Shown here: piece by piece, positions 14,347 through 39,926 of the stretch
Layout: each line of letters opens with the position of its first letter
How positions within the stretch are numbered: the first letter of the stretch is position 1
Origin: Gemmatimonadaceae bacterium
GTDB lineage: Bacteria; Gemmatimonadota; Gemmatimonadetes; Gemmatimonadales; Gemmatimonadaceae
Assembly: GCA_035444005.1 (NCBI GenBank)
Contig: DAOMNV010000007.1
Span: forward strand, 11,604-75,603
DNA: 64,000 nucleotides
Direction: 5' to 3'
Made by a program: the position numbers and the translations under genes
Notes under the pieces: model-generated
What the model was told of the DNA's origin: nothing
Database searches by the model: none
The model's input: only the letters and a program-made list of their open reading frames with translations

Positions 14347-15888
14347 GTGGCTCTTCCCCGACGATTCCCCCTGATCGCCCGCGGGCGCGGCGCTGGCCGC
14401 CGCGCCCTGCTCCTCGCCGGCTTCGCCCTCGCCATCGGCTGCGGTGACGCCCGCGTCTCCTCGGGCGGCGCGATCGCCGCCAGCGGCCCGGACGCCGTGC
14501 TGCTGCGCGTGCCCGCCGCCGGCGGCACCGCCCTCGCCCACCGCGCCGGCGACGACAGCACCCTCTGGTCCTCGCGCAGCCGCGTCCCCGCCTCCGAGCG
14601 CCTCCTCGGCTTCGACGACTTCCTCGGCATCGCCCTGCTCCGCGAGCCCAGCGGCCACATCAGCTCGCTGGACCTCCGCCTCGGCACCGTCACGCGCCTC
14701 GCCGACCAACGCCTGCCGCCGCGCCTCGTCGCCGAGGGCGCGGCCGTCTTCGGCCTCGAGGAGAACGGCCGCATCGTGCGCCTCACGCCCTCGGTCACCT
14801 GGAGCTGGCCCGTGCCGGGCGGCGCCACGGCACTGGTGCCCACGCCCGACGGCTCGCTGCTCGTCATCAGCACGGCCGAGGGCCGCAGCCGCGTCATCCG
14901 CATCGTGCCGCCGGAATCGCGCACGCTCGACTCCGCGACCATCGGCGCCGTGCGCCTCGCCGCGCGCACGCTCTCCGGCGACCGCCTCTGGGCCGTCACC
15001 GCCGACGGACTGGTATCGCTGCGCACGCGCGACCTCTCGCAGGCCTTCGAGCTGCGCATCAGCGACAGCATCGTCGGCTTCGCCCTCACGCCCAGCGGCG
15101 ACCGCGCCTTCGTCGCCACCGACGAGGACGAGCTGCGCATCGTCGACCGCTACGCCGAGCGCGAACGCGGCCGCGTCGCGCTGCCCGGCCGCGTCACCGA
15201 CCTGCGGATGGATCCCGACGGCCACTACCTACTCGCCAAGGCCGCCGGCGTCGACTCCGCCTACGTGATCAGCATCGGCACAGAGCGCGTGGTGGGCACG
15301 CTGGCCAGCGCCTGGCGCGACGACCTCCCGCTGGTCACGCCCGACGGCCGCGTGCTCGTCGTGCAGGGCGATCACGCCGTGCTGCTCGACGCCGAGTCGG
15401 GCCGCGAGCGCCTGCGCTATCGCAACGGTGCCGCCGACCGCTGGCTGCTGATCCGCTACAACGGCTTCCGCCCCCGCGCCGCTGGCCTCGACCGGCCCGT
15501 GGAGTTCGAGGAGTACGCGCAGGATTCCGCCTCCGCCGATTCCGCGCTCACGGCGATGATCTACGGTCGCTACGGCGACCTCGGCAGCGTGGGCCGCGCC
15601 GCACCGATGGAGAACGCCCCCGCCCCGCCGCCGGCGCAGCGCCCCACCGGCACGGACCTGCGCGGCACCTGGAGCGTGTCGTTCGCGACGATGATGACCG
15701 AGGACCGCGCCAAGTCGATGGCCGACAGCATCGTCGTCGACGGCCGTCGCGCCCGCGTGGTGCCCGGCCTGCGCGACGGCGTGCAGGTCTGGCGCGTACT
15801 GCTCGGGCCCTTCGAGACGCGGCAGGCCGCCGAGCGCGCGGGGATGGCCTCGCGCCTGAGCTACTGGGTGTTCGAGGGCGCGCCGTGA
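14347..15888 (+). CDS. lipoprotein with a C-terminal SPOR (peptidoglycan-binding) domain
   Basis: GTG start. The signal peptide plus lipobox LAIGC indicates a lipoprotein. The C-terminal about 75 aa (TWSVSFATMMTEDRAKSMADSIVVDGRRARVV...WRVLLGPF) is SPOR-like. The 1567-aa ORF in the six-frame track is a high-GC artefact spanning three genes. Confidence 0.6.
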   Translation: MALPRRFPLIARGRGAGRRALLLAGFALAIGCGDARVSSGGAIAASGPDAVLLRVPAAGGTALAHRAGDDSTLWSSRSRVPASERLLGFDDFLGIALLREPSGHISSLDLRLGTVTRLADQRLPPRLVAEGAAVFGLEENGRIVRLTPSVTWSWPVPGGATALVPTPDGSLLVISTAEGRSRVIRIVPPESRTLDSATIGAVRLAARTLSGDRLWAVTADGLVSLRTRDLSQAFELRISDSIVGFALTPSGDRAFVATDEDELRIVDRYAERERGRVALPGRVTDLRMDPDGHYLLAKAAGVDSAYVISIGTERVVGTLASAWRDDLPLVTPDGRVLVVQGDHAVLLDAESGRERLRYRNGAADRWLLIRYNGFRPRAAGLDRPVEFEEYAQDSASADSALTAMIYGRYGDLGSVGRAAPMENAPAPPPAQRPTGTDLRGTWSVSFATMMTEDRAKSMADSIVVDGRRARVVPGLRDGVQVWRVLLGPFETRQAAERAGMASRLSYWVFEGAP

Positions 15889-17183
15889 CGCCAGACCTCG
15901 TGCCGCCCGAGGCCTGGGCGGACGAAGGCCAGCGTTGCGCCCCCCAGCTCAGCGACATCGCCGCCGCCGTCGTCGTCGGCCGCGATGCCGATGCCACGGC
16001 GGCCGTCGCGCTCGGATTGGCCCGCGCCTGCGCGGGCGAGCGCCGGGTGGCCGTGGCCGATCTCATCGGCGGCGTCAGCCTGCTCACGCCCCTCGACGAC
16101 CAGCCCGGCCTGCTCGAGTGCTTGCGCGACGGCATCGCCGTCTCGGAGATCGGCCAGCCCCTCGCCGAAGCCCCCGACGTGTATTTGCTGCCGGCCGGCC
16201 GCGGGCCCATCGCCGAGCGCTGGGTGTTCGAGAGCGCCCGCTGGGACCGCCTCGTGGGCGGCTTTCGCGAGGTCGATGCCCTGCTGCTCCTCGTCGCGCA
16301 GGTCGGTGCCCCGGGCCTCGACCGCTTGATCGAGCGCGTGGACGGCGTCGTCGCCGTGGACCTGCCGCCCGCCGTGCTACGCACGCTGCCGCTGATCGCC
16401 ACCGTGGACCACCCGGAGCCCGAGCTGCCCCCGATCCCCGGCACGCCGGCTCCGGGCTCGCAGCGGGCCGTGGCGGCCCCGCGTGGGCCGCGGAAGATCG
16501 GGCGCTGGATTCTCGCGGCGCTGCTCGTGCTGGCGGCGCTGGGATTCGGATTCCGCGAACAGTTGGCGGCACTCGCCGAGCGCGCTGCCGACAGCGAGCC
16601 GGCGCCTGCGCCCGACAGCGCCCAAGCCAGCGGCGGGACGGAGGCCAGCCCCCTGCCCGCCACCGATTTCTCCCTCGGCCCCGTTGTCAACCCCGCCGAC
16701 TCCGCCAGCGCCCTGCGATTCAGCGTCGAACTCGTAGCGGCGAACAGCCTCTCGGGTGCAAATTCAGGGCTTACGTCGCGCGGGGATTCTTATCCGATTC
16801 CCACCGTGGCGCCGGTGCTGCTCGGTAGCGCCCCGACGGTGTGGTATCGCGCGATGGTCGGTGCCTGGGCCAGCAAGGCCGAGGCCGAGGCTTGGCTCGA
16901 TCACCAGCGGGCCTTGGGGCTCGTGCGCAGTGGCGTCGGGCGCGTGCGGGAAGCGCCGTTTGCGTTGCAGTTGTTCGAGGGCCCCCGCGAGGAGGCCCTG
17001 GCCCAGTCCCTGCAGTTGGGCAGCGAGGACGTGCACGTCTACGTGCTCGAGACATCCGATGGCCGCGTCCGCGTACTCGCGGGCGCCTTTGAATCGGCGA
17101 GCCAGGCCCTCTGGTTCGCAGCGCAGTTGCACGAGCGCGGGCTCTCCCCGCAGCTCGCGTACAGAACCGGGAGAACGTTCTAA
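15885..17183 (+). CDS. membrane-anchored hypothetical protein with C-terminal SPOR-like repeats
   Basis: Overlapping GTG start. A single TM segment (RWILAALLVLAALGFGF) is followed by Pro/Ala-rich linker and C-terminal ...WYRAMVGAWASKAEAEAWL... / ...VRVLAGAFESASQALWFAAQL SPOR-like modules. Confidence 0.5.
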   Translation: MTPDLVPPEAWADEGQRCAPQLSDIAAAVVVGRDADATAAVALGLARACAGERRVAVADLIGGVSLLTPLDDQPGLLECLRDGIAVSEIGQPLAEAPDVYLLPAGRGPIAERWVFESARWDRLVGGFREVDALLLLVAQVGAPGLDRLIERVDGVVAVDLPPAVLRTLPLIATVDHPEPELPPIPGTPAPGSQRAVAAPRGPRKIGRWILAALLVLAALGFGFREQLAALAERAADSEPAPAPDSAQASGGTEASPLPATDFSLGPVVNPADSASALRFSVELVAANSLSGANSGLTSRGDSYPIPTVAPVLLGSAPTVWYRAMVGAWASKAEAEAWLDHQRALGLVRSGVGRVREAPFALQLFEGPREEALAQSLQLGSEDVHVYVLETSDGRVRVLAGAFESASQALWFAAQLHERGLSPQLAYRTGRTF

Positions 17184-20100
17184 GTGCGGTTGACCAAGCT
17201 CGAATTGCACGGCTTCAAGTCCTTTGCCGATCCGGTGTTCCTGACGTTCGAGCCGGGTGCCACGGCGATCGTCGGGCCGAACGGCTGCGGCAAGTCCAAC
17301 GTCTCCGACGCCGTGCGCTGGGTGCTCGGCGAACAGCGCGCCCGCCTGCTCCGCGGCGGCAAGATGGAAGACGTCATCTTCCAGGGCAGCTCCGCGCGCC
17401 GCGCGACCAACGTCGCCGAAGTCTCGCTGCACTTCGAGAATTCCGACGGGATGCTCCCCGTGCCGTTCCAGGAAGTCGTCATCACGCGGCGCCTCTCGCG
17501 CAGCGGCGAGAGCGAGTACTTCCTCAACCGCGCGCCCTGCCGCCTGCGCGACATCCACGATCTCGTGCGCGGCACCGGACTCGGCGCCGACTCCGGCGTG
17601 GTGATCGAGAGCAAGATGATCGACGCGCTGCTCTCCGACCGGCCCGACGACCGTCGCGAGCTCTTCGAGGAAGCCGCCGGCGTCGGTCTCTATCGCGATC
17701 GCCGTCGCAGCACGGAGCGCCAGCTCGAAGCCACCTCCGGCGACCTCGTGCGCATCGACGACCTCACGTCGGAAGTGCAGACGCAGGTGCGCTCGCTGCT
17801 CCGCCAGCGCAACAAGGCCGAGAAGCACGCCAGCATCACCACGCGCCGCTTCGCCGTGGAGCTCACGCTCGCCTCGCGCGAGATGGCCTCGTGGCAGCAG
17901 GAGCTCGTCGACCTCGACACCCGCCTCGGCGGACTTCGCGAGAACCTCCCGGCCGCGCAGCAGGCCGTGCGCGACGCCGAGGTCGCCCGCGATCTCGCGC
18001 AGGCCGCCCGTGCCGCCGCCGAGACCGCGCGCCAGGAGCGCGCCATCGTCGCCGCGCAGGCCCGCCAGAGCGTGCTCGAGCTGCAGCAGGAACTCGCCGT
18101 CGCCGAGGAGCGCCACCGCAATGCGCTCACGCGCCGCGAGCGCGCGCTGCAGGAGCAGCAGGAAGGCGCCGCCTTCGGCGATCGCCTGCAGGGCGAGATG
18201 GACGCCGCCCAGGCCGAGGAGACGCTCTGCACCGAGCAGCTGCACGAGGCGCTGGAGATCCTCCGCGAGAAGGTCGCCGCCGAGGAGGAAGCCCGTAGCG
18301 CCGTGGCCAACGCCCGCCAGAACGCCGACGCCGCCGATCGCGTCACCCGCGAGCTGCGCGACACCGCGCGACGCCTCGAGCTGGAACGCGAGAACGCCGA
18401 GCGCGAGCTCGCCGACGTCGCACAGCGTACGGCCGCGCTGGTGGCCGAGCACGAGGCCCTGACCTCGCGCCTGCAGCTCGCCGAGCGCGAGCTGGCCTCG
18501 GCCGATGAGCAGTTGGAGATGGCCCGCGAAGCCGCATCCGCCGCCGAAGCCGCGCTGGAGCAGTCGCGCGCCGCGGCGCGTGAGGCCCGCGACCGCGAAG
18601 CCGCCGCCCGCGCCGACGTGCGTCGCGTCGAGGAAGAACACACCGCCGTGCAGGGCCGCCTCGCCGCGCTCGAAGGCCTCGAGCGCGAGCGCGTGGGCCT
18701 CGCCCCTGCCGCCGCCAAGCTGCTGCGCGAACGCGAGCGCTTCGGCAGCGATGCCGTGCTCGGACCGCTCTCCGACTTCATCGGCGCGGATGCTGCGGTC
18801 GCTGCGCAGATCGAGCGCTTTCTCGGTGCCACCGTGCACGCCGTGGTCGTGCGCGACCGCGCCGCCGCCGACGCCGTGCGCGCCTGGCACAGCGAGACCA
18901 ACCCCGGCGCCCTGCTGCTGCTCCCGCTCGATGCACTGCACGACGGCAATGGCAACGTCGCCCCCGACGAACTCGCCGCGCGCGTGCGCGCCGAGGGCGC
19001 CGGTGGCAATTGGGTCCGTGCCCTGCTCGGTAAGGTGAAGGCGACGCCCGAAGGCAACGGCTTCATCGACGCACGTGGCGCGATGTGGCTGCCCGCCAAG
19101 GATTCCGGTTCGGCCGGCCCCCTCACGCGGCGCGCCGAGCTCGAGGAACTGCGCGCCACGCTCGCCAACGTCGACCTGCGTCGCGCCGAGGTGCAGCAGC
19201 GCGCGCAGGCTGTGCACGACGAAGTCGTGCAGGCCGAGTCCGCTGCGGCTGCCGCGGCCGACAACGCCGCCGCGGCACAGCAGTCGCTCGCCCAGGCTTC
19301 GCAGGCCCGCAGCGAGCGCGATCGCGTGCGCGAGCGCGCGGCCCGCGAGCTCGCCGACGCCGTCGCGCTGCAGGAGCGCCTCGCCGGCCGTCACACCGAG
19401 CTCGGCGACCGCGTCAACGCCTCGCTCGTGCGCCAGGAAGAGACCACGCAGAAGCTCGTCGACGCCGACGAGCAGGCCAGCACCGCGCGTGGCTTGCTTG
19501 CCACCGCCGAGCGGGCGCAGGACGAAGCCCGCGAGGCCCGCGCCGCGCAGCAGGTGGCGCACGCGCAGGCCGAGGCGCGGCGGCAGGTCGCCACGGAGCG
19601 TCGCGAGCGTTTGGCGCGCGAGCGTGCCGCCGCGGCGGATCGCCTCGTGGCCCTCGAACGCGAGATGCAGGCGCTGGCCGAGCAGGACGGCCAGCTCGAA
19701 GAGCAGATGGGCGTCTGGCAGCAGGAGCTGGCGGCGCGTCGCGCCAGCCAGGCCGAGGCCGACGAAGCCCTGCGCGGCGCCGAACAGGCCGTGCGCGAGA
19801 CGGAATCGGAGCTGCAGTCCGCCATCACCGCGCTCGACGCCGCGCGCATCGAGGCCAACAGCAGCAACGAGACGCTGCACGTCGCCGAACTGCGCCACAC
19901 CGAGTTGAGCGGCAAGCGCGCGGCCATCCGCGAGCGCCTGGAGACCGAGTGGCGCCGTCCGCTCGACGAACTCTTCGCCAATTACGAGCCCGTCGAGGCC
20001 GAAGAGGACGCCCTGCGCGCCGAAGCCGAGGACCTGCGCAGGCAGATCGAGCAGCTCGGCCCCGTGAACCCGCTGGCCATCGAGGAGCACGAGGAGGAGA

Positions 20101-26386: not shown

Positions 26387-27232
26387 TTGTCCACCGCGCC
26401 ACTAAGCATTGCCACGGTCCCTGTCGACGCGCACTGCACTGGCAGTCGTTGGGTCGTGAGCGACGACAAGAGTCTCGCTCGCATCATCGCATACGTCGCG
26501 ATGGGCCATGCGACTCATGCTGCCAACATCCTCAGTGCCCTCACCGAGACATCGCCGGACATTGCTCATCCCGCATTGGTGCTGGCGGCAATTCGAAAGT
26601 TGACTGTCAATGACGCTCCCGGAGCTCCCTCTGAGGGAGTGCCCACCGTTCACAGGGACGGATTCGTTTTCCAGGTGATTTCGTGGGCAGCCGCGCAGCA
26701 AGAGCATGGCGGTTCAGTGCTAATCAGAGACCCGCATTCTTCCGCAACCGCCCAGGGTATTGATGGACTTATGTTGGAGCTATCTGAAGACCGGTCAACG
26801 ATTCACCTAACGACAATCTTTGAAGACAAGTGTACTGAGCATCAAAGACGGACTTTTATGCGGGAGGTTCTCCCGACATTTTCAGCCTTTCACCAGAACC
26901 TGCGCAGCCCTGACCTTGTCGCAACGGCCTCAGGGCTTCTTCGCTGGGCAGGCATCCCTGCCACAGCTGTGCCTCTCATGGCGGCCACAGTACTGGATCC
27001 GCAGGCACGTCGATATCGGGCCGCATTCGCCATTGAGCCTGACTTTGACAGCCAGCAGCGCCGCGCCACGCTCTTTGCCAACTATGACAATCTACAGGGG
27101 CTGACGGCTATACAGCGCGTTGGAGCGACGCTCGTAGTATCGACGCCACTTCGTGCGTGGTTCGCGACACTGGCCGCAACCGCCTGCGAGTATCTGCGGT
27201 CTCTACCTGAAGGGAGTCCTCGCGGTGTTTGA
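26387..27232 (+). CDS. hypothetical protein, candidate HamA-like (DUF1837-like) nuclease partner of the downstream helicase
   Basis: 281 aa, TTG start. A possible PD-(D/E)xK-like arrangement (IDGLMLELSED ... IFEDKC) is present. The gene overlaps the next gene. Homology was not verified. Confidence 0.4.
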   Translation: MSTAPLSIATVPVDAHCTGSRWVVSDDKSLARIIAYVAMGHATHAANILSALTETSPDIAHPALVLAAIRKLTVNDAPGAPSEGVPTVHRDGFVFQVISWAAAQQEHGGSVLIRDPHSSATAQGIDGLMLELSEDRSTIHLTTIFEDKCTEHQRRTFMREVLPTFSAFHQNLRSPDLVATASGLLRWAGIPATAVPLMAATVLDPQARRYRAAFAIEPDFDSQQRRATLFANYDNLQGLTAIQRVGATLVVSTPLRAWFATLAATACEYLRSLPEGSPRGV

Positions 27233-30200
27233 CCCCATTTCAAGCGCGATGCTTCGCGGGGCTCCCGCTGTACCCGGACTTAGTGCAGCGGACATTCCCG
27301 CCTTACTGACTCGGCACTACGCGCGTCTTGTCTCGGCGCGACTGCGCGGTAGCTCACTAACCACCTTTGCCGCCAATGATCAATGGCCGCCGCAGCGCAT
27401 AGCCGATGTATACGAAATTGTGGCATCCCTCGGTGAGGATAGGCCCGCACGCATCGCTGCCGCATTTGTTGCCGCCACCGCTCATCAGGTTATGGCCTCT
27501 GCAAATGCCACAGGCGCTGTCGGTGAGCTTGGCGGCGCAACTGTTTCCCGCGACTCGGTTGACTCCTCCCTTGCCGCCGCGTTGCTCTTCCTTTTAGCTG
27601 AACAGTACGCGGACGCTTACGAAGCCGCACGCACCATTCCCTCAGCGGGTGCGGCAGATCGCTCCGCTGCAGCTCTACTTGCTGAGAACATCGCGTCACT
27701 TGCACGCGGGCAACTTAGAGCCATTCTCGCGAGAGCTGAGAGCCGGTCGACAACATTTCCTAGCGAACTCGACATCGAGGCTGGGGCGCTTTCGGCGCTG
27801 CTTGGCGCCCTAAACGATGGAGTTGAACTGCTCGCTTCGGAGGTCTTGGACGAATCTGGGATTGTTGGCGCCAGGGCGCGCTTTCAGTCCTCGGCTGAAG
27901 CGTTTAACACGGTCCTCGGACTCTCTCAAGGCGAGGAAGCCCGCATCGGGGAGACCGTCTTCCCTCATAGCTCTTACCCCGGTCCCGCTCACCTTGCAGC
28001 GCTTCTGCTGGCGGCCTCTGACTCAATAAGTGGAGCGGCATTGGTTCGCCTCGCACCACCGGACGGGGCGGAAGGGCGCTACTGGAAGCGATGGATAAGG
28101 TTTCGCGCGGAGCGCGCGCCCTTCTTGTGGCCCAATCATCGCACCGCCGTCGATCGCGGTTTCCTGTCTCTCGGCAGTTCGGCAGTTCTTGTTCTGCCCA
28201 CTGGGGCCGGAAAGACGACAGTGTCGTCCTTGAAGATTGCCGCAACCCTCGCTCGAGGGCAGAAGGTCATATTTCTGGCGCCAACGCACGCTCTCGTCGA
28301 GCAGCTTGTCGACGATTTGCAACAGATGTTCCCGCAGGACCTCACTGGCTCTGCAGTGTCGAGCGACTTTGACAGCCTGTTTCAGACGGGGCGAGAGCTT
28401 CGCGACATAGAGGTCATGACGCCAGAGCGATGCCTGGCAATGCTATCGTTTGCTCCCGAGGCATTTGCGAACCTCGGTCTGCTGGTCTTTGATGAATGCC
28501 ACCTGCTGGCCCCTTACGGAGACAGAGTAAGGCGGTCCATGGACGCCATGCTTTGCCTGCTCGGCCTGGTCCGTGTCGCGCCGTCAGCAGATTTGCTCTT
28601 CCTTTCAGCGATGCTTAAGGAAGCCGAGGCTTTCTCTGACTGGGTAGCCGCCCTCACGGGGCGCACCTGCCTTTGCGTTGATCTTCTCTGGAAGCCGAGT
28701 CGGCAGGCGAGAGGCGTACTGATTTACAGTGACGCTGATGTTGCCTCTGCTGAGAAGAGAGCTCTCAGCATCCAGAGGCAGATTGACAAGCAAACGGGCA
28801 AGCGCGCGAAGGGCCTTCGCTCTAAGGCCGCAGAGCATCTTGCCTTGCCAGCGTATGCCCTTTGGGGACTTCAGCATAACTGGCTTCAGGAAGATTCACT
28901 CCGGTGCAGCATTCGCGCGGTACTCGACACTCCTGTCTTGCTGACTGGCCAGCTCGGCCGGGGCACCATTCGCTTGAAGCCGAACGCCAACCACGTTGCT
29001 TCACGAGTCGCGGTGTCTGCCGTGAAGGTCGGTTTAAAAGCCATTGTGTTTGTCAACACCAAAGACGACGCACTCTCCGTAGCGCGTAGCATTTCTGCAG
29101 AGCTTCCCACGGCGGAGCGATTGACTGCACTTGAGCCAGAGCGTTGGTCCGCATTGGAAACAGAGCTTGGCGGCCTAATGCACTCGGTACTTTCACCCGA
29201 TGCAGCCGCTGTTCCACACAATGCGTCAATGATTCGGCTTGAGCGCGATCTGGCAGAGCGTCTGTATCGTCACCCCCGCGGTGCAGCGGCAATTGTCGCG
29301 ACTCCGACACTTGCACAGGGCCTCAATTTACCAGCGCACATTGCGATTCTTGCAGGAGACAAACGCGCTGACTCTACCGGCACTGGGCGATCGGAACTGG
29401 AAGCGCATGAGCTGCTGAACGCGGCGGCGCGTGCGGGGCGCGCTGGCCATGTCGCAAATGGAGTAGTACTCCTCATTCCTGAGCCTCCAATCACCTTCGA
29501 GGCTAAGGAGAAAGCGCTCGGACCGGTCGCAATGCAGAAGTTGAAGTCGATTCTTCCGGATGACGACCGTTGCGTGGCCATTTCCGACCCTCTTCAGTTG
29601 ATACTTGATAGGCTTTCCGAAGGTACGGAGCTCGACGCGGATAGCCGCTACCTTGTGAGCCGAATGATGGGCTTCCGTGCGACCGGCCAAGATGGATCGC
29701 CAGCGGCGCCCTTCGACATTCGGCGTTCGCTAGGAGCATTTGTCGCTCGCATTGAAGGAAGCGAAGAGCGTTTCGAGCGCGGAGTCCTTGCGCTCAGTGC
29801 GGCCGTAGACAACGCTCTTGCTAGCGTTTCCGATGAGCGAGTCGCTTCCCTGGCATCCCTTACTGGTCTTCCATTGGATGTCCTCGAGCGCCTGTTAGGT
29901 CGCCTCTCTGCCGGCGATGCAGCGCTTCCTGATTCAATAGATGCCTGGATTGACTGGACATTCTCCTGGCTTGACTCCGACGTCGAAGCGCGTTCCAGTC
30001 TTCTGGGCGATCTCAGTGGTTCAGTCCGTGCATCTTGCGGCCTTAGCCGATCAGGCGCAGTCTCCGCTGCCGAGCTAAGGATTGTCGCGGCCGGTCTCCG
30101 TGCCTGGGTTCACGGCGCACCCCTCTCGCAGATCGAAACTGCGCTCGGCGGCAACCCGTTCGCTGGCCCATCCTCCGCAAGCCTATGCCCGAGAGCCAGA

Positions 30201-30446
30201 GAACTCGTCGGCACCGTGATTCCTCGCGGCATTTCGTTCATCGTGAGTATCGTTTCTCATCTTGCACGCACGACAGTTGACGGCGCAGGACAGCAGGACC
30301 TCGTCCGCGACACATTGGACGTCTTGGCGACCTGCGTGCGACGTGGTTTCGACTCTGCCGATATGCTTCGCTTCGCGAACGATAATCCTTCAGTACTCTC
30401 TCGCGTTCAGCTTCATAGGCTCTACCATCAGGCAGGAGCTCAGTAG
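27225..30446 (+). CDS. SF2 DExH-box helicase with about 290-aa N-terminal extension, HamB (Hachiman)-like
   Basis: Helicase motifs are present: Walker A LPTGAGKT, DECH, motif III-like SAM, motif VI ARAGRAGH. Total length is about 1070 aa. The start could be GTG 27225 or ATG 27249 (the six-frame track ORF starts at 27153). Confidence 0.6.
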   Translation: MFDPISSAMLRGAPAVPGLSAADIPALLTRHYARLVSARLRGSSLTTFAANDQWPPQRIADVYEIVASLGEDRPARIAAAFVAATAHQVMASANATGAVGELGGATVSRDSVDSSLAAALLFLLAEQYADAYEAARTIPSAGAADRSAAALLAENIASLARGQLRAILARAESRSTTFPSELDIEAGALSALLGALNDGVELLASEVLDESGIVGARARFQSSAEAFNTVLGLSQGEEARIGETVFPHSSYPGPAHLAALLLAASDSISGAALVRLAPPDGAEGRYWKRWIRFRAERAPFLWPNHRTAVDRGFLSLGSSAVLVLPTGAGKTTVSSLKIAATLARGQKVIFLAPTHALVEQLVDDLQQMFPQDLTGSAVSSDFDSLFQTGRELRDIEVMTPERCLAMLSFAPEAFANLGLLVFDECHLLAPYGDRVRRSMDAMLCLLGLVRVAPSADLLFLSAMLKEAEAFSDWVAALTGRTCLCVDLLWKPSRQARGVLIYSDADVASAEKRALSIQRQIDKQTGKRAKGLRSKAAEHLALPAYALWGLQHNWLQEDSLRCSIRAVLDTPVLLTGQLGRGTIRLKPNANHVASRVAVSAVKVGLKAIVFVNTKDDALSVARSISAELPTAERLTALEPERWSALETELGGLMHSVLSPDAAAVPHNASMIRLERDLAERLYRHPRGAAAIVATPTLAQGLNLPAHIAILAGDKRADSTGTGRSELEAHELLNAAARAGRAGHVANGVVLLIPEPPITFEAKEKALGPVAMQKLKSILPDDDRCVAISDPLQLILDRLSEGTELDADSRYLVSRMMGFRATGQDGSPAAPFDIRRSLGAFVARIEGSEERFERGVLALSAAVDNALASVSDERVASLASLTGLPLDVLERLLGRLSAGDAALPDSIDAWIDWTFSWLDSDVEARSSLLGDLSGSVRASCGLSRSGAVSAAELRIVAAGLRAWVHGAPLSQIETALGGNPFAGPSSASLCPRARELVGTVIPRGISFIVSIVSHLARTTVDGAGQQDLVRDTLDVLATCVRRGFDSADMLRFANDNPSVLSRVQLHRLYHQAGAQ

Positions 30447-30616: not shown

Positions 30617-30898
30617 TTGAACGCGGGCTCTTCCCACCTCCAAAGCCTAGGATTCTGCCCGGTGACTTCAGACGACGACTTTGCGCTGATTGTGCCTCGC
30701 CACGGCGAACCGGTGATTGTCGAGCCGGGTGATGACCTTTCCGAATACGTGGGCTCGCAGCTCTCCACCCGGCGACGGGCAGTCGCGCTTAAGTCTGGCC
30801 GGAGCGTCACGGGCACCATCTACGCTATCCGTGAACTGAGTGGAGAGGATGAGATCGCGATTGAGGTGCTGGTCAACGAGTTCTTTGCGAAGGCGTAG
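30617..30898 (+). CDS. small acidic hypothetical protein (93 aa or shorter)
   Basis: Balanced, non-Arg-rich composition in a low-GC spacer. The ORF precedes the HTH-DUF433 gene. It could be spurious. Confidence 0.25.
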   Translation: MNAGSSHLQSLGFCPVTSDDDFALIVPRHGEPVIVEPGDDLSEYVGSQLSTRRRAVALKSGRSVTGTIYAIRELSGEDEIAIEVLVNEFFAKA

Positions 30899-31028: not shown

Positions 31029-31730
31029 ATGGTAGCCTCGAGATTCAAGTACATCGGCCGCGGCGTCTACTCGTTGCCTGACGCGGAGCGGCTCACCGGC
31101 GTCCCGCGCCGGAGCATTCGGCGGTGGACGTCGGGCTATAGGTGGGTGTACCGAGGTCGCCCTCGCTACTCCCCTCCGGTCATCGGCGCAGACCTGGCTG
31201 AAATATTTGGTGCCCCGGCTCTCGATTTTGCTGACTTGATCGAGGTTCGCTTCCTTCAGGCGTTCCTTAACAAAGGTGTGAGCTGGAAGACGATCCGGAT
31301 CGCCTCTGAGCGCGCGAAAGAGGTGCTCGGCGCTCGTCATCCATTCTCCCACAGGAAGTTCAGCACAGACGGGCGCAACATCCTGGCAGAACTCGCGCGC
31401 GCTGAGGATGATCCTGTGCTGCTTGACTTGGTCCGAGATCAGTACGAACTCAATCGCCTCGTCTCACAGCACCTTTTCGGCGAGATCGATTTTGGACCTG
31501 ACGACGCCCCATCCGTCTGGTATCCGCTAGGGAAGTCGCAGCGCGTAGTTGTAGATCCCCGCCGTGCTCTGGGTGCGCCGATCATCGCATCGGTTGGCAT
31601 TCCTACTGCTGTCCTTGCGCAGTCCGCAGAGGCTGAGGGCTCGGTCACGGTTGTTGCCGATATGTTCGGCATTGAGGTCGCCGACGTGCTTGATGCTGTC
31701 AACTACGAGACCTCTCGTTCGAGCCGGTGA
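31029..31730 (+). CDS. HTH domain + C-terminal DUF433 protein (putative antitoxin-like component)
   Basis: N-terminal excisionase/MerR-like HTH (YSLPDAERLTGVPRRSIRRW). The C-terminus (RRALGAPIIASVGIPTAVLAQSAEAEGSVTVVADMFGIEVADVLDAVNYE) matches the DUF433 pattern. It overlaps the next gene by 4 nt. Confidence 0.55.
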   Translation: MVASRFKYIGRGVYSLPDAERLTGVPRRSIRRWTSGYRWVYRGRPRYSPPVIGADLAEIFGAPALDFADLIEVRFLQAFLNKGVSWKTIRIASERAKEVLGARHPFSHRKFSTDGRNILAELARAEDDPVLLDLVRDQYELNRLVSQHLFGEIDFGPDDAPSVWYPLGKSQRVVVDPRRALGAPIIASVGIPTAVLAQSAEAEGSVTVVADMFGIEVADVLDAVNYETSRSSR

Positions 31731-32140
31731 GATTCTTCCTTGACGCATGCATTTCGCAGCGCATTGCGCACAGCTTGGCGCTCGCCGCGGAGGGTAACGG
31801 GCAGACAGTCAAGCACCTGACGGACCTCTTTGAGCCCAACACTCCCGACGTCGAGTGGATTCGCGCTTTGAAACAGGAAGGCGATTGGATAATCATCTCT
31901 GCCGACCCCAGAATCACTCGCAACAGAATCGAGCACGCTGCGTGGCAAGAGAGTGGCCTCACGGCCTTCTTTCTAGTTGACTTCTCTCGCCGCAAGTTCT
32001 GGGATCAGCTCCACGAGCTCGTCTCTCGTTGGCCCGATATCGTAATCGCGGCGAGGGAAGGTGCGCCGGGCTCTGGGTATTTGATAAAGCCGAGACAGAA
32101 GAGCTTTCCGACAATTTTTGAACCAGCCACAGATCAGTAG
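31727..32140 (+). CDS. DUF5615 (Mut7-C/PIN-like RNase) protein, putative toxin-like partner of DUF433
   Basis: MRFFLDACIS...GDWIIISADPRITRN... DUF433 and DUF5615 are a widely co-occurring pair. Confidence 0.6.
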   Translation: MRFFLDACISQRIAHSLALAAEGNGQTVKHLTDLFEPNTPDVEWIRALKQEGDWIIISADPRITRNRIEHAAWQESGLTAFFLVDFSRRKFWDQLHELVSRWPDIVIAAREGAPGSGYLIKPRQKSFPTIFEPATDQ

Positions 32141-32267: not shown

Positions 32268-32948
32268 TTGCAGTCTACCCGTCTTGTACGCCTGACCCAC
32301 CAAGTGTCAAATGCTGCTCTCGTCTCGACATTGGCATTCGCAAGCAACGACAACATCTCGCTTATGGATTCCCCCGAACGCCAATCCGTCCGCAGAGCGC
32401 TCGACGCACTCAAGCCATTTCTCGAGGCCTTCCTGCACAAGCAGGGCGTCAGGCCAGCGCCCGCGATCGGCGGCCACGCAGGTTCCACGCCAGACATTCA
32501 GGCCCTACTCAGAGCTTGCCTCCACGCTTGGGACGCGGTCCTCCAGCACCAGCTCCCCCGCGTCGCCCGCACATACATCCACGAGATCCTCGACGTCCGC
32601 AACCGCTGGGCCCACGAGGCACCCTTCACCGCTGCCGAGGCGGCTCGCGCCGCAGACACGGCCAGAGTCTTCGCCGTGCTCATCGGCGCCCCCGAGCAGC
32701 CGGCCACCATCCCTGCTACCGCCCCTGCCCCGCGGCCAGCACCCGGCAAACGCCGCGAATCCCAGCGCGAGATCATGGCCCGCATCTTCGTCGCTGCCGG
32801 CCGCGACGAAGAGCGAGCTATCCGCGAGTACGCGGCTGCCGAGCTCCGGGGTGAAGTGGTACGCAAGAGCAACAAGCACGGCCTGGATGCAGAGTCCTAC
32901 GCGCGAGCACTGCTCAATGACGGCCTGAAGAAGGGCTGGCTGCCATAG
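32268..32948 (+). CDS. HEPN-domain (Rx4H) protein, Swt1-like (start uncertain; ATG at 32364 also possible)
   Basis: The motif ILDVRNRWAHEAPF contains R-x4-H, the HEPN catalytic signature. No adjacent minimal nucleotidyltransferase partner is present. Confidence 0.45.
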   Translation: MQSTRLVRLTHQVSNAALVSTLAFASNDNISLMDSPERQSVRRALDALKPFLEAFLHKQGVRPAPAIGGHAGSTPDIQALLRACLHAWDAVLQHQLPRVARTYIHEILDVRNRWAHEAPFTAAEAARAADTARVFAVLIGAPEQPATIPATAPAPRPAPGKRRESQREIMARIFVAAGRDEERAIREYAAAELRGEVVRKSNKHGLDAESYARALLNDGLKKGWLP

Positions 32949-33021: not shown

Positions 33022-35739
33022 ATGGAAAGCCTCGACTCGACGCGCCCCGAGACCTACCTCCTGCTCTGGAATCCCGGGCTCTTCCCTTGGGATAATCACC
33101 GCGAGGTGGCGGCTTCCGTAACCGCGGGCAAGTCCCAAACCCTCGAATGGTCTACGGGCGCGCGGAAGCAGATGCCCGTTGGGTCTCACGTGCTGCTCAC
33201 GCGGGTCGGACGCGACCAGCCCGGGGTCGTGCTCAGCGGCACGACAGTCGCTCCGGTCGAGACTCGTGCGCACTTTGATCCTGCCCGAGCGACGGCTGGT
33301 GACACCGCGAACTATGTGAAGTTCCGCGTGGACCTTATGGTGGATGTGGCCGAGCGGGCACCGCTTGACCTCCGTGACCGCTTCGACCAAGCATTTCGCT
33401 CGTACAATTGGACGCCGCAGGCCTCGGGTATCGTCGTGCCTGATGAGATTGCTTCGCGCGCGCTGACGGTCTGGCGTGCGTACGTGACTGCTCCGCCAGC
33501 TGCTGGGCCTGCCTTCGGGCGCCTGCGCACCGCGCCACGGGTTTACGCTGCGGTTGACGCCTGGCGCGAACGCTGCCTGCTGAAGGACGGCTCAGCCCTA
33601 TCGGACGGCAGTGTGTGGACTACCGACAACGTCACTGCGCTCATCACGCACTTCGTGGACAAGCCCGATGAAGGCGACCGATCGTTCCTGCTGAAGTTAC
33701 AGGATCAGCTGGCATCGGCTCCGAAGGGGGCCAGCCAACTCGCGGCCGAGATGCTCTGGCTGATGATGCTGTTCCCTGATCGCATCGGCGGCGACTCCAA
33801 GCGTACGCTGGTGCAGACCGTGTGGGATTGGTCAGGTGCAAAGCTGCCCGACGGGCACCCGCTTCTCGCCGGCCTGGACGAAGGCATCGGCAGCACGGGC
33901 ACCGCCTACAACACGAGGCGGCCGTTCGAGCTTATGCTCTTGGTCCGCTTCGCTGCTGCGTGGAAGGGCCTTCCGATGCAGGAGCAGCAAGCGCTGCTCG
34001 CGGAGCCGATGGCGTTCGCCGAGTGGTTCGATCGGCTCCCGGAGGTGGATGGCAAGCAGATTCGACACATCCTGCTGCACCTGCTCTTCCCTGAGTATTT
34101 CCCTCGCGTGGGATCACGCGGACACAAGCGGCAGATTGACGACGCCTTTCGCTATTTGCTCTCGCCGGAGGAGCTTGAAACGGCGCCGACCGATTCTCCG
34201 CTCGACCGCGACCGCCGAATCCTAATGATCGGGCGTCGGCTCAATGCGGCCTACCCCGATCTCGCGCCAGTCGACTTCTACTCGAGCCAGCCAGTGCGCC
34301 AGGAATGGATGCCGCTTCCGCGTGCCGTCAAGGAAGACCCACTCGTTCCATATGTCCCGACTCCTGCCGAGCAAGAATCCGCATCCGAAAGCCGAACGTG
34401 GGTGATCGCAGCCGGTGAAGGCGCTCGGCTGCTCAGTACCTTCCTTGAACGCAACATCATCGCCATCGGCTGGGAAGAGTTGGGCGACTTGCGTGAATAC
34501 GCGACACAGTCGGCTCTGACCAAGGCGATTAGGAAGGCCTACGGGCGGGCCAATCCCACCAACGACGCGCTGTGCTGCTACCAGTTCTGCCGGGAGATGG
34601 CAGATGGTGACCGCGTGTACATCAAGCAGGGGCGCTCGCGGATCCTCGCGTCAGGCATCGTGAAGGGCGAGTATCGGCACGACCCCTCGCTCGCGGAGTA
34701 CCCCAACGTCCGGAGCATCCAGTGGGAGCAGCGCGGAAACTGGGCCCTCCCCGCTGGCGTGCTTCTTCCGACCAAGACGCTCACCGACGTCACGAACGTC
34801 GAGTCCTTCAACGATTGGGTTGAGGCGAACGTGCTGCAGGAGGACACGCCCGCGCCAGTCTTGGTGCCCTACTCCGTGGCGAACCTGCTCACCGAGGTGT
34901 TCTGGGACGAGGAGACCATTCGCGACCTGCTCGGCAGTCTGCGACGTCGGCGGAATCTCATCCTTCAGGGCCCGCCCGGGGTCGGCAAGACATATCTCGC
35001 TCGCCGTTTGGCCTATGCGCTCATCGGCACCAAGCGTCCTGAAGCGGTCCAGCTGGTCCAGTTCCACCAAAGCTACTCGTATGAGGACTTCATCCAGGGT
35101 TGGCGCCCGAGCGAAGGCGGCGGCTTCGCGCTTCGCAATGGCGTCTTCTACGAGTTCTGCCAGAAGGCACAAGCAGAGCCAGCCCGCGACTACGTCTTCA
35201 TCATTGATGAAGTGAACCGAGGGAATCTCAGCAAGATCTTCGGCGAACTCCTGATGCTCATCGAAGCAGACAAGCGCGGTCCAGAGTTCGCGATCCCCCT
35301 CACATACTCGGAGTCCGGCACGGACACGTACTTCATCCCGAAGAACGTGTACCTGCTCGGGATGATGAACACGGCGGACCGGTCGCTGGCTATGGTGGAC
35401 TTTGCGTTGCGGCGGCGGTTCGCCTTCCGCACGCTCCGGCCCGCCCTCGGGTCACCGGGCTTCCGCGCTACCCTCGCCGAAAAGGGTGTCGAGGACGCCG
35501 TCATCAACCGCATCATCGACCGCATCGAGCGGGTGAATGCAATGATCGAGGAAGATCACAAGAACCTTGGCGCTGGCTTCCTCATCGGCCACAGCTTCTT
35601 CTGCCCCACAGACGCGGTGACGGACGCAGACGCGTGGTACGGCGCCGTCGTCCGCGACGAGATCCTTCCCCTGCTCCAGGAGTACTGGTTCGACAACGCG
35701 AAGGCGCTGGACGAATCCCGAAGCATCTTGGAGGGGTGA
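33022..35739 (+). CDS. mcrB: McrB-family AAA+ GTPase restriction subunit with about 600-aa N-terminal extension containing EVE/PUA-like modified-base-reader domain(s)
   Basis: The C-terminal region has McrB signatures (LILQGPPGVGKTY; FHQSYSYEDFIQGW; FIIDEVNRGNLSKIFGELL; LGMMNTADRSLAMVDFALRRRF). The N-terminus (YLLLWNPGLFPWD...) is EVE/PUA-like, and a second reader-like module lies at about aa 430-580. Confidence 0.8.
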   Translation: MESLDSTRPETYLLLWNPGLFPWDNHREVAASVTAGKSQTLEWSTGARKQMPVGSHVLLTRVGRDQPGVVLSGTTVAPVETRAHFDPARATAGDTANYVKFRVDLMVDVAERAPLDLRDRFDQAFRSYNWTPQASGIVVPDEIASRALTVWRAYVTAPPAAGPAFGRLRTAPRVYAAVDAWRERCLLKDGSALSDGSVWTTDNVTALITHFVDKPDEGDRSFLLKLQDQLASAPKGASQLAAEMLWLMMLFPDRIGGDSKRTLVQTVWDWSGAKLPDGHPLLAGLDEGIGSTGTAYNTRRPFELMLLVRFAAAWKGLPMQEQQALLAEPMAFAEWFDRLPEVDGKQIRHILLHLLFPEYFPRVGSRGHKRQIDDAFRYLLSPEELETAPTDSPLDRDRRILMIGRRLNAAYPDLAPVDFYSSQPVRQEWMPLPRAVKEDPLVPYVPTPAEQESASESRTWVIAAGEGARLLSTFLERNIIAIGWEELGDLREYATQSALTKAIRKAYGRANPTNDALCCYQFCREMADGDRVYIKQGRSRILASGIVKGEYRHDPSLAEYPNVRSIQWEQRGNWALPAGVLLPTKTLTDVTNVESFNDWVEANVLQEDTPAPVLVPYSVANLLTEVFWDEETIRDLLGSLRRRRNLILQGPPGVGKTYLARRLAYALIGTKRPEAVQLVQFHQSYSYEDFIQGWRPSEGGGFALRNGVFYEFCQKAQAEPARDYVFIIDEVNRGNLSKIFGELLMLIEADKRGPEFAIPLTYSESGTDTYFIPKNVYLLGMMNTADRSLAMVDFALRRRFAFRTLRPALGSPGFRATLAEKGVEDAVINRIIDRIERVNAMIEEDHKNLGAGFLIGHSFFCPTDAVTDADAWYGAVVRDEILPLLQEYWFDNAKALDESRSILEG

Positions 35740-35743
35740 CCGG

Positions 35744-36796
35744 ATGGCCCAGGCCATTCCTGTCGATAACATCTACTACCTGCTTGCCTACGCGTGGGAC
35801 CGGCTCGACGAGGCCGACCTCGCTGAGGTGAGCGCGCTGTCGGCACATAGTCTGGTGGAGCTGTTCGCGAGGGTGCTGCGGACCGGCGTTTCCCACCTCC
35901 TGCTCCGCGGACTCGACAGGTCGTACGTCGTGGAGACCGAGGAGCTCGCCGGAGTACGCGGCCGCATCGAGCTTGCCGCCTCCCTCCAGCACCTCTCGTT
36001 CCCGCAGGGCCGCGCCGTCTGCTCGTACGACGAGCTTTCCATAGATACGCCCGCCAACCGCGTTATCAAGACGACGCTGCGGCGGCTTGCCGCCGAGCCG
36101 AGTCTCAGCGCCAGCGATGCGGAGTCACTGCGGGAGCTCTACCGGCGCCTTCCTGGCGTCGCGACTGTGGCGTTGAGCGACAGCTCGTTCCGCCGTGTGA
36201 ACGTCACGGTCAACCGCAGCCAGTACGGGTTCCTGCTCGATGTCTGCACACTCATCCATCGCAACCTGTTGATGGACGAAGCTGCCGGTGAGTTCGTGTT
36301 TCGCGATTTCACGCGAGACAATCAGCAAATGGCACGGCTATTCGAGAGCTTCCTGCGTCGGTTTTACGAGCGGGAACAGGATGCGTTCAAGGTCGCGGCA
36401 CCGAAGTTGTACTGGGACGCCGAAGGCCCCGCCGCCAGCCTGTCCTTTCTGCCGGAGATGCGCACGGACCTTGTGCTCCGGGCACCTGGGCGAACGCTCG
36501 TGATTGACGCGAAGTACTACTCCGAGGCATTGAGCCGCTACTACGACAAAGACACGATCCGGCCGGACCACTTGTACCAGATGTCTGCCTACCTGAGGCA
36601 CATCACACCGGACCTTCCGGCGGCTGCGGTCGGAGGGATGCTGCTGTACCCGAGGACGACGGAGTCGCGGTGTCTCGACTTCTCGGTCCACGGCCACCCG
36701 TTCAGAGTCGCGACGGTAAACCTTGCGCAGCATTGGAAGGCGCTGCACGAGGAGTTGCTGGGCCTCGTCCGAGGCCTCTCCCCCGTGGCTGCCTAA
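35744..36796 (+). CDS. mcrC: McrC restriction endonuclease subunit
   Basis: 350 aa immediately downstream of mcr[22 protein letters not shown]... is an McrC-like N-terminus, and a PD-(D/E)xK region is present (LVIDAKYY). Confidence 0.75.
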
Positions 36797-36873
36797 GGGC
36801 TATCTTCGAGAATCTCCCCATAGGCTTGCTGGCCGAGCCTCAGGACACACGAGCCCCCCGACCTCGCGCGATT

Positions 36874-38616
36874 TTGGCAGACACCAACCTCTCCGCCCTC
36901 CTCTGGTCCGTCGCCGATCTTCTCCGCGGCGACTACAAGCAGTCCGAATACGGCAAGGTCATCCTCCCCTTCACCGTCCTCCGCCGCCTCGACTGCGTGC
37001 TGGAGCCCACCAAGCCGGCGGTCCTAAAGGAGTACGTGAGGCGACAGAAGTCCGGCCTCGACCCCGACGCCTTCTGCAAGAAGGTCGCGGGCCTCGACTT
37101 CTACAACACCTCTCCACTCGACCTCAACAGGCTCATCGGCGACCAAGACAACATCGGTCCGAACCTCGTCGCGTACACTCAAGGCTTCTCCCCCGCCGTG
37201 CGCGACATCTTCGATCAGTTCGACTTCCACACGCAGATCGACCGGCTGACCAAGGCCAGACTGCTTTATCTGGTGACGGAGAAGTTCGCCGGCGTTGACC
37301 TGCACCCTGAGACGGTGAGCAACGCCGATATGGGCCTCGTCTTCGAGGAACTCATCCGGCGCTTCGCCGAACTCTCCAACGAGACGGCCGGTGAGCACTT
37401 CACGCCGCGCGAGGTCATCCGGCTGATGGTGAACCTCATCTTTACCGAGGACGGCGATGTCCTCGCGAAGCCAGGCGTAGTACGCCAGCTGTATGACCCG
37501 ACAGCGGGCACGGGCGGGATGCTGAGCGTAGCCGAGGAGCACCTGAAGGTGATGAACCCGAAGGCTCGGCTCGTGATGCACGGGCAGGAGCTCAACCCCG
37601 AGTCCTACGCCATCTGTAAGGCGGATATGCTCATCAAGGGGCAGGACATCGGGAACATCATCCTCGGCAACACGCTCTCCGAGGACGGGCACCGCGGCCA
37701 GCGCTTCGACTATATGCTCTCCAACCCGCCCTTCGGCGTGGAGTGGAAGAAGGTCGAGAAGGAGGTGCGCCGCGAGCACGAACAGCAGGGCTTCGACGGG
37801 CGCTTCGGGCCGGGACTCCCGCGCGTGAGCGACGGCTCAATGCTCTTTCTGCTGCACCTGCTCTCGAAGATGCGCCCCGCGAAGGACGGCGGCAGCCGCT
37901 TTGCAATCGTGCTCAACGGCTCCCCACTCTTCACGGGCGGCGCGGGCTCAGGCGAGAGCGAGATCCGGCGCTACGTCCTCGAGAACGACCTCCTCGAGGC
38001 GATCGTGGGGCTCCCGACCGACATGTTCTACAACACGGGGATCGCGACCTACATCTGGGTGGTGAGCAACCGGAAGCCGGCGGACCGGAAGGGGAAGGTC
38101 CAGCTCATCGACGCCAGCGCGATGTGGCAGAAGATACGGAAGTCGCTGGGCTCCAAGCGGCGCGAGATGGCCGAGTCGCACATCGAGGATGTCACGAAGC
38201 TCTTCGGGGACGCCGAGGAGGTGACGCGCGATGGCGTGCCCATCAGCCGCATCTTCCGGAACGAGGAGTTCGGCTACCGGACCATCACGGTCGAGCGACC
38301 GCAGCGGGACGAGGCCGGCAACGTCGTGCTCGGCACCAAGGGCAAGCTCAAGGGGAAGCCGGTCGCCGACCCAGCCTTGCGCGACACGGAGAATGTGCCG
38401 CTCACCGAGGCGGTGGAGGCGTACTTCGAGCGCGAGGTGAAGCCGCACGCGCCGGATGCTTGGATCGACGAAGAGAAGACCAAGGTCGGGTATGAGATCC
38501 CGTTCAACCGGCACTTCTATGTCTTCAAGCCGCCGCGCTCGTTGGAGGAGATTGACGCGGAGCTGAAGGAGGTGTCAGGGCGGATTGTGGCGATGCTAGG
38601 AGATCTTCACACGTGA
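36874..38616 (+). CDS. hsdM: type I restriction-modification system methyltransferase subunit HsdM
   Basis: HsdM N-domain ([41 protein letters not shown]). N6-adenine methyltransferase motif NPPF ([10 protein letters not shown]). The start is set at TTG 36874; the six-frame track ORF extends into mcrC. Confidence 0.85.
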
Positions 38617-39926
38617 GTCTTCGAAAATACCCAGGTCTGAAGCAGACCGGCATTCCTTGGTTCCCAGCTGCACCTGATTCGTGGCGTGTTCTGCCGCTAT
38701 TCGCGTGTGCAGCCGAGAAATATCAGAGCAACCTGGGCTCGGTCAATGCTAATCTGCTTTCCCTGAGTTACGGCAACATTGTTCGAAAAGACATAAACTC
38801 AAATGACGGGCTTCTTCCCGAATCATTCGAGACATATCAGGTCGTTGATCCAGGTGACATCATTCTGCGTCTTACCGATATGCAGAATGACCAACGCAGC
38901 CTTCGTTCTGGAATTGTGCGTGAGCGGGGGATCATTACTTCAGCCTACCTAAACCTTCAGCCCACGGCCCTCGAATCGGAGTACCTTGCCTACCAGATTC
39001 GTGCGATCGATACATGCAAGGTCATGTATTCAATGGGAGGAGGATTACGCCAGTCCATCAAGTATTCAGACCTGAAGCAACTCCCGCTGATAGCTCCTCC
39101 CTTGCAGGAGCAGAAGTTGATTGCCCGGTTTCTCGACCGCGAGACTGCCAAGATCGACGCCCTCATCACCGAGCAGGAGCGGCTGATTGCGCTGCTGCAG
39201 GAGAAGCGGCAGGCCGTCATCTCGCACGCGGTGACCAAGGGACTGGACCCGAACGTGCCGATGAAGGACTCGGGGGTTCAGTGGATGGGCAGGATCCCGG
39301 CGCACTGGAGCGTTACATCGACTCGTCGCTTGGCGAGTGCAATCCTTACTGGGCGCACTCCTAGCACCGGAGCTCCCGCTGAGTGCGACGCAGGGAGCAC
39401 CATCCCGTGGTATACCCCTGGTGACTTTACCGGCTCACTAATGCTAGACCAGTCAGTACGGTGTATATCGGAAGCAACCCTTGAGGCCAACGAGGTTCCG
39501 AGCTTTCCCGCCGGCTCCGTGCTGCTCGTGGCAATCGGTGCAACGCTTGGTAAGCTCGCTGTAGCCAGGCGGACTTGCTCCGCAAACCAACAAGTCAACG
39601 CCATCGTGCCCGCGTCCGGCACCAACGGGCGGTATGTCGCTTTCGCTCTAGATGCTCAGAAAGAGCAGATCGTCGCGCAAGCCGCGGCCTCGACACTGCC
39701 GATTCTAAACCAAGAGAAGACAGCTTCACTGCTTGTGGCGCTCCCGCCTGCTCTGGAGCAGGACGCAATCGTGGCCTTACTTGATGAGCAACTGACCGCC
39801 CACGAGGCAGTCCTGCAGGGCTGCGAACGCTCAATCAACTTACTCTTCGAACGCCGCACCGCCCTCATCACCGCCGCCGTGACCGGCCAGATCGACGTCC
39901 GCGGCCTTGTCGAGACCGCCGCCTGA
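38613..39926 (+). CDS. hsdS: type I restriction-modification specificity subunit HsdS (two target-recognition domains)
   Basis: 437 aa with GTG start overlapping the hsdM stop. Two TRD halves are separated by conserved central and C-terminal helices ([40 protein letters not shown]). Confidence 0.8.

Follow-up and report, generated by a model that had tools for sequence, protein, structure and literature searches.

We analyzed a 64,000-nucleotide (nt) stretch of a Gemmatimonadaceae metagenome-assembled genome (MAG) (GenBank assembly GCA_035444005.1, contig DAOMNV010000007.1, positions 11,604 to 75,603 of the forward strand; hereafter the window). In this window two overlapping genes on the + strand, termed here hamA-like and hamB-like and together spanning positions 26387-30446, very likely constitute a strongly diverged, intact Hachiman (HamAB) system of the minimal kind, consisting of a stand-alone catalytic HamA and a HamB (type I-A in one nomenclature). 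An earlier note made from the sequence had read the pair as Hachiman-like, and this reading is supported by the closest folds of both proteins, the gene order, the protein sizes and the helicase type, while the sequence models for HamA fail to recognize the smaller protein. What is new is a far-diverged clade of a known defense system, and neither a new kind of system nor a new mechanism.

Gene Pair and Junction

The hamA-like gene (26387..27232, +) has a TTG start and a TGA stop at 27230-27232 and encodes a protein of 281 amino acids (aa), the predicted effector, a putative PD-(D/E)xK nuclease with a HamA (DUF1837) fold. The hamB-like gene (27225..30446, +) runs from a GTG start to a TAG stop at 30444-30446 and encodes a Ski2/Hel308-like superfamily 2 (SF2) helicase of 1073 aa, which is predicted to act as sensor and regulator. 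Both open reading frames (ORFs) lie where the earlier note had described a 281-aa ORF followed by an SF2 helicase overlapping it by a few nt, and the overlap is 8 nt long (sequence GTGTTTGA). The motifs it had named are likewise all present by translation: the small protein contains GIDGLMLELSED and TTIFEDKCT, and the helicase contains PTGAGKT, DECH, SAM and ARAGRAGH. At the junction (27209..27232, +) a Shine-Dalgarno-like GAAGGGAG (27209-27216) is located 8 nt 5' of the helicase GTG at 27225, which in turn overlaps the end of the hamA-like gene at its TGA, and this layout suggests that the two genes may be translationally coupled. Inspection for a sigma-70 promoter or a terminator revealed none that was convincing.

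The start of the helicase was placed at GTG 27225 rather than at GTG 27153, where mechanical listing of ORFs begins a protein of 1097 aa, because all 30 aligned helicase homologues begin with M-F-D, which pairs with V-F-D at 27225, and because the NCBI gene call for the same MAG protein is 1073 aa long. For the small gene, shorter public calls of 243 aa (ENA ERZ773355 NODE_407) and 258 aa (NCBI HRN51911.1) exist; the 281-aa start is favored because residues 5-38 are conserved among homologues and residues 6-24 form confident beta-strands in the AlphaFold2 (AF2) model. The truncated ENA and NCBI calls drop this conserved N-terminal beta-hairpin (residues 6-24), which is kept by the relatives.

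Predicted Fold and Catalytic Residues of the Small Protein

Structure prediction from an alignment without templates yielded a confident AF2 model of the small protein, with a predicted local distance difference test score (pLDDT) of 93 and a predicted template modeling score (pTM) of 0.91. The earlier note had proposed looking for a PD-(D/E)xK fold in such a model, and the outcome was clear: the fold is present, and the closest known folds are those of HamA in the case of the small protein and of HamB in the case of its helicase partner. The best structural match of the small-protein model is HamA of E. coli ECOR31, which is clearly ahead of the second-ranked match and shows 9% identity in the structural alignment. 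Approximately 190-210 residues align with HamA and AbpA, vs. approximately 110-140 with other PD-(D/E)xK nucleases. The model thereby combines the PD-(D/E)xK core with the HamA-specific elaborations that characterize the DUF1837 fold; type IIS/IIP restriction endonucleases and other PD-(D/E)xK proteins of defense systems (N.BspD6I, NgoMIV, PaqCI, McrC, CdiA-CT, Shedu SduA, Can2, and Cap4) are without these elaborations.

The family is large: there are 103 homologues at 40-54% identity, and a library of 1.8 billion proteins yielded 452 clusters at 50% identity. In an alignment of 111 sequences reaching down to 23% identity, D91, W100, G124, D126, E146, K148, and R256 are invariant, and in the AF2 model D91, D126, and the E146/K148 pair fall on elements of the canonical PD-(D/E)xK core, namely helix alpha1, the beginning of beta2, and the close of beta3, respectively. 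The R90-D91-G92 motif (26654..26662, +) lies in a long helix (residues 87-110), from which the invariant D91 probably helps to bind metal. D126 (26762..26764, +), the "PD" aspartate, opens core strand beta2 (127-132), whereas core strand beta3 (139-148) closes with the (D/E)xK motif, E146-D147-K148 (26822..26830, +). In S. thermophilus HamA, the residues G89, D90, E93, D127, E147, and K149 are essential (PMC13064477), G89-D90 being the counterpart of the R90-D91-G92 motif; both E147/K149 of that protein and E138/K140 of ECOR31 HamA, which correspond to E146/K148 here, are required for defense (PMC12278908; PMC13064477). The spacing of D91, D126, E146, and K148 in the window protein is a near match to that of D90, D127, E147, and K149 in S. 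thermophilus HamA (PMC13064477). The conserved D...ExK catalytic set of a PD-(D/E)xK nuclease is intact in the stand-alone small protein, which by analogy to these HamA proteins would be expected to act as a DNase.

The Helicase

The four helicase motifs are intact in the window protein and invariant in 31 homologues. Motif I PTGAGKT (28197-28217, aa 325-331), motif II DECH (28491-28502, aa 423-426), and motif III SAM (28605-28613, aa 461-463) lie in RecA1 (28152..28724, +; aa ~310-500), and motif VI ARAGRAGH (29427-29450, aa 735-742) lies in RecA2 (29022..29504, +; aa ~600-760), which matches RecA2 of SLH1, ASCC3, Brr2, and Hel308. Between the two RecA domains the predicted structure has an insert of helix and beta-hairpin (~503-600), and the core is framed by two helical regions. 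The first of these (27225..28124, +; aa 1-300) is the N-terminal extension of about 290 aa that the earlier note had pointed out, and it is real: the only Pfam matches, DEAD and ResIII, begin at aa ~317-319 (aa 341-343 in the 1097-aa numbering), and residues 1-300 are all-alpha in the model. This domain is the predicted counterpart of the HamB NAH (TPR-like) helical bundle, which is specific to HamB and serves as the docking site of HamA (Tuck et al., PMC12278908). The second is an all-alpha C-terminal region (29592..30443, +; aa ~790-1073) in which no beta-barrel is predicted and which, by comparison with the HamB domains described in PMC12278908, is the probable DNA-cleft region (winged-helix/CAH-like).

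The best structural match of the helicase model in the PDB is ECOR31 HamB, with 849 aligned residues and 17% identity in the structural alignment, whereas Hel308/Ski2 helicases align over at most 578 residues, approximately 270 fewer. These approximately 270 extra residues would fit a shared N-terminal helical domain, although the comparison is one of overall aligned lengths rather than of individual residues, and the equivalence to NAH is a predicted one. The start position of RecA1 is shared with ECOR31 HamB as well, residues 292-503 aligning to 297-509. At the level of sequence, PDB searches with the helicase returned Ski2-like proteins (SLH1, ASCC3, Brr2, Hel308, and Mtr4) together with HamB, and the top PADLOC matches were HamB1 models, with E 6e-27 for the window helicase and 1e-34 to 1e-36 for distant relatives.

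Conservation and Distribution of the Pair

The two genes are inherited as a unit. A helicase gene lies directly 3' of the small gene on the same strand in 80 of the 84 loci that carry the small gene, i.e., in 80 of 81 informative loci, the exceptions being three contig ends and one true orphan in Rhizobium laguerreae. An overlap of 8 nt recurs in 38 of 62 related loci and one of 1 nt in a further 16 (54 of 62 together), and from locus to locus the pairwise identities of one protein track those of the other (r = 0.90). The orphan, in strain FB206 (locus L064, 5998-6822), encodes a HamA-like protein of 274 aa with neighbors on the opposite strand, and three other loci (L011, L082, and L084) have a truncated or split helicase; all four look like decaying copies.

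The hosts belong to at least eight phyla and include Alpha-, Beta-, and Gammaproteobacteria, Myxococcota, Desulfobacterota, Bacteroidales, Bacillota, Synergistota, and Cyanobacteria, in addition to the Gemmatimonadaceae MAG. Flanking genes differ from locus to locus: of the 432 flanking ORFs in 60 related loci, 363 are singletons, and three or more flank families are common to just 4 of 1770 locus pairs, which all fall inside one genus. Neighbors at the related loci include HipAB, TIR, RES-Xre, resolvase, IS66, and DUF4365. A search of plasmids and phages found the small gene on 16 plasmids, 12 of which are conjugative or mobilizable, and on none of the phages; at the one plasmid locus inspected, the helicase gene is directly downstream. 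A conserved chromosomal context across relatives, which the earlier note had held would speak against its reading, is therefore contradicted by variable flanks and plasmid copies. Public records leave the pair largely unannotated: all those examined label the two proteins "hypothetical protein" and "DEAD/DEAH box helicase", save two UniProt entries (from Pseudodonghicola flavimaris and Ruegeria alba) in which the small protein is named [quoted passage not shown].

At one related locus, that of Pseudomonas chlororaphis (CP083442.1, locus L002), the pair is followed on its 3' side by three genes at 12593-15472 which encode an AAA_18 protein, an AAA_18 protein with an adenylosuccinate-synthetase-like part, and a DUF7002 protein; this cluster could be another nucleotide-targeting defense module.

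Comparison with Known Systems

E. coli ECOR31 HamAB (PDB 8VX9/8VXY) resembles the window pair in being a two-gene operon with hamA first, located in a defense island, and in combining a PD-(D/E)xK nuclease of ~250-280 aa that has a D...ExK active site with a Ski2/Hel308-like DExH helicase of ~1100 aa in which a ~300-aa N-terminal helical domain precedes RecA1. The window helicase differs in being approximately 100 aa shorter, in the absence of a predicted C-terminal OB-like barrel, and in its motif II, which is DECH and not DEGH, together with a motif III SAM; further differences are that neither PF08878 nor the PADLOC HamA models recognize the small protein, and that the N-terminal domain of the helicase is without sequence similarity to HamB. 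In the AbpAB system of E. coli K-12 (Hachiman type I-B; PDB 8ZUE), AbpA has a Cap4 nuclease at its N terminus, fused to a DUF1837 domain that is catalytically dead (PMC11914072); its Pfam matches are PF14130 and PF08878. An AbpAB-type identity was rejected, as the small protein has no Cap4_nuclease match and keeps all catalytic residues.

Hel308/Hjm and the eukaryotic Ski2-like helicases (SLH1, ASCC3, Brr2, and Mtr4) differ from the window helicase in having neither the ~300-aa N-terminal helical domain nor a nuclease partner, and in being housekeeping proteins of conserved distribution that, as described above, align over fewer residues than HamB does. The unvalidated PADLOC candidate PDC-M23 is similar insofar as its PDC-M23B model fits the helicase (E 1.6e-23) and its distant relatives (1e-27 to 1e-30), but there is no PDC-M23A match to the small protein and the HamB1 models score better in every case. 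The literature searched held no mention of PDC-M23 and nothing relevant on Hachiman-like, HamA-like, or HamB-like pairs.

Alternative Explanations

Several results weigh against assigning the pair to Hachiman, and most of them concern sequence searches with the small protein. The Pfam model PF08878.16 gave no match at E <= 1 to the small protein or to 43 close relatives, four of which had none at E <= 10, and none at E <= 10 to the family consensus and nine distant members; precomputed PF08878.17 annotation was blank for 103 of 103 homologues. The positive control for this model, AbpA, scores 3.7e-41. The two members bearing the UniProt name cited above behave in the same manner, without a PF08878.16 match at E <= 10 and with a blank PF08878.17 column. 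Faint sequence evidence in favor of HamA comes from that UniProt name and from the distant members, in which PF08878 is the commonest sub-threshold Pfam family (found in 4 of 111 sequences, with a best E of 0.0012). The PADLOC HamA models did not match the small protein and reached 1 of 111 relatives at noise level (E 0.003). The search for DUF1837 with hidden Markov models (HMMs) that the earlier note had put forward as a check thus turned out negative, as PF08878 and the PADLOC HamA models missed the small protein along with practically every relative. NCBIfam, Pfam, and PADLOC scans found nothing in the small protein; PDB searches by phmmer with the single sequence and with a profile of 43 sequences gave no match; and when the family profile was compared by hhalign with AbpA itself and with an alignment of AbpA-type HamA proteins, nothing was found, with the limit that the HamA profile, which was meant to be diverse, held only 16 close AbpA relatives and was too narrow. 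Foldseek against the PDB with the small-protein model returned no significant match and did not retrieve HamA. On the side of the helicase, the AF2 model is of moderate confidence (pLDDT 78.9, pTM 0.78) and does not predict the C-terminal beta-barrel of the ECOR31 HamB type; a profile of the N-terminal domain found nothing in the PDB, including HamB NAH; the best stretches of the PADLOC HamB1 matches span ~200 of 995-1163 profile positions plus a second stretch in RecA2, i.e., the RecA core only, where a PADLOC system call requires a full-length HamB match; and PDC-M23B is nearly equal to HamB1 in its fit. With regard to the small protein, non-detection is weak evidence against membership, because an AbpA-type HamA profile in the PDB profile search misses ECOR31 HamA too, so that two validated HamA proteins are mutually undetectable. 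The earlier note had allowed that a small protein outside DUF1837 would make this an uncharacterized nuclease-helicase pair, which holds for its sequence annotation and does not hold for its fold and architecture.

A rival reading is a separate nuclease-helicase defense system, in which a PD-(D/E)xK effector and a Ski2-like helicase had come together independently of Hachiman or had split from it very anciently, and which may respond to another trigger or substrate, such as a phage protein or RNA, on which many Ski2-like helicases act (PMC12278908). Such a system would deserve a name of its own, and the small protein without significant similarity to any HamA model, the N-terminal domain without similarity to HamB NAH, the Foldseek result, the near parity of PDC-M23B with HamB, and the predicted all-alpha C-terminal region without an OB-like barrel all point in its direction. 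We nevertheless regard it as quite unlikely, since each protein independently has its ECOR31 counterpart as the best structural match, clearly separated from the runner-up, since gene order, sizes, RecA1 start position, and catalytic spacing fit Hachiman, and since the diversity of HamA is such that validated members miss each other by sequence. A role in housekeeping or accessory DNA repair, with a Hel308/Hjm-like helicase and a structure-specific nuclease that would work together at stalled forks or on damage in the host DNA, outside immunity, is very improbable. It draws on the best NCBIfam matches, which are archaeal Hel308/Hjm-type models, and on HamB itself being functionally Hel308-like and responding to DNA damage (PMC12278908), but the scores fall far below the equivalog cut-offs of these families: 96.5 bits vs. 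887 for the best match, an archaeal Hel308/Hjm-type "ATP-dependent DNA helicase" model, 63.6 vs. 1200 for Hel308, and 13.9 vs. 1053 for HrpB, with Hef, Lhr-like, RecG, and PriA likewise far under theirs, and RecQ absent from the best 25 of 30 NCBIfam families. The earlier note had named a grouping of the helicase with Lhr, HrpB, or RecQ as part of what would refute its reading; these scores show that it does not group with them, and a housekeeping Hel308/Lhr/RecQ helicase was rejected on them and on the variable context. Also contrary to a repair module are the sporadic occurrence over distant phyla without a conserved neighborhood, the conjugative plasmids, the toxin-antitoxin (TA), TIR, restriction-modification (R-M), and transposase neighbors, and the low-GC island in the window, which implies horizontal acquisition. 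It is least probable of all, to the point of being hardly credible, that the pair is a non-autonomous accessory of the neighboring McrBC-like or type I R-M genes, with which it shares the strand and the low-GC island; in 60 other loci it stands alone among unrelated neighbors, here a TA pair and a HEPN gene intervene, and the type I system has an HsdR of its own. This role was rejected as the pair travels alone elsewhere.

Proposed Mechanism

Returning to the Hachiman reading, the most likely mechanism is that of E. coli HamAB, because the predicted anatomy of the pair fits a minimal Hachiman system in the structural and organizational respects tested, the HamA sequence models being the point at which it fails; the mechanism of the E. 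coli systems has been demonstrated previously (PMC12278908; PMC11914072). By analogy to these, the two genes would be co-transcribed and translationally coupled, and the 281-aa nuclease would be bound 1:1 to the helical domain that the ~300 N-terminal residues of the helicase (1073 aa) form, and would thereby be held inactive. The HamAB-like complex would survey DNA, and upon infection the helicase would load on damaged DNA or free 3' ends, its ATP-driven unwinding activating or releasing the nuclease. The nuclease would then degrade phage and host DNA without sequence specificity, such that phage replication would be halted and the infected cell killed or arrested, an outcome of the abortive infection type.

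Implications for Hachiman Annotation

Hachiman is among the more common, broad-spectrum anti-phage systems, and estimates of its prevalence rest on DUF1837 sequence models. The nuclease subunit of the clade described here is unrecognized by Pfam PF08878, PADLOC 2.0, and NCBI PGAP, and prevalence estimates from those HamA models therefore probably miss the clade. Its members, including the Hachiman-type system identified here in a Gemmatimonadaceae genome, allow defense annotation to be extended, e.g., by a new HamA HMM built from the family alignment, and provide a far-diverged comparison point for determining which features of the HamA-HamB interface and of the active site are truly essential.

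It is doubtful that the clade (~450 clusters at 50% identity, at least eight phyla) goes beyond far divergence and represents a distinct, so far unclassified Hachiman type. If it did, it would have its own co-evolved interface between nuclease and N-terminal domain and an all-alpha C-terminal region without an OB-like barrel, and possibly a cue or substrate other than the DNA damage or 3' ends sensed by E. coli HamAB.

Genomic Context

The pair is the left edge of a defense island, as the earlier note had also placed it. Upstream, on the other strand, are the housekeeping genes prmC, a YlbF-like gene, tmk, and a gene for a CtpB-like protease, and at the pair the G+C content (GC) drops from ~0.70 to 0.59, then stays near 0.62 until ~45 kb (0.593 across the two genes and 0.621 over 26.3-45 kb, vs. 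0.696 and 0.683 for the flanks). This low-GC stretch, which implies horizontal acquisition, holds further defense-related genes 3' of the pair. No tRNA, att-like flanking direct repeat, or integrase was found at the island boundaries.

Directly 3' of the helicase, a DUF433/HTH_66 antitoxin gene (31029-31730, +) and a PIN_10 toxin gene (31727-32140, +) overlap by 4 nt and look like a type II TA pair. They are followed by a stand-alone HEPN_Swt1 protein (32268-32948, +; PF18731, E 1.8e-15) with no obvious partner and no PADLOC match, by an McrBC-like pair (33022-36796, +), and by a complete type I R-M set of hsdM, hsdS, and hsdR (36670-43039, +). With 905 aa, the McrB-like protein is of unusual length, and its AAA_5 core is at residues 645-800; its middle part (residues 458-571) matches the PADLOC candidate PDC-S02 (E 7e-21), and DUF8426 is listed for the protein in precomputed Pfam. 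The start of hsdM is at ~36874 in the ENA call vs. 36670 in the mechanical ORF.

Three further ORFs belong to the low-GC island. One of 93 aa (30617-30898, +) has no precomputed Pfam annotation for its 78-aa ENA equivalent. The other two (43051-43818, -, and 44287-45306, +) have no significant Pfam match (RecJ_C_Deinoc below cutoff, E 0.0078) and no PADLOC match; situated at the right edge, they could delimit the island or represent additional defense genes. Elsewhere in the window, at ~13000-20000, GC reaches 0.72-0.75 vs. a genome background of 0.67-0.70.

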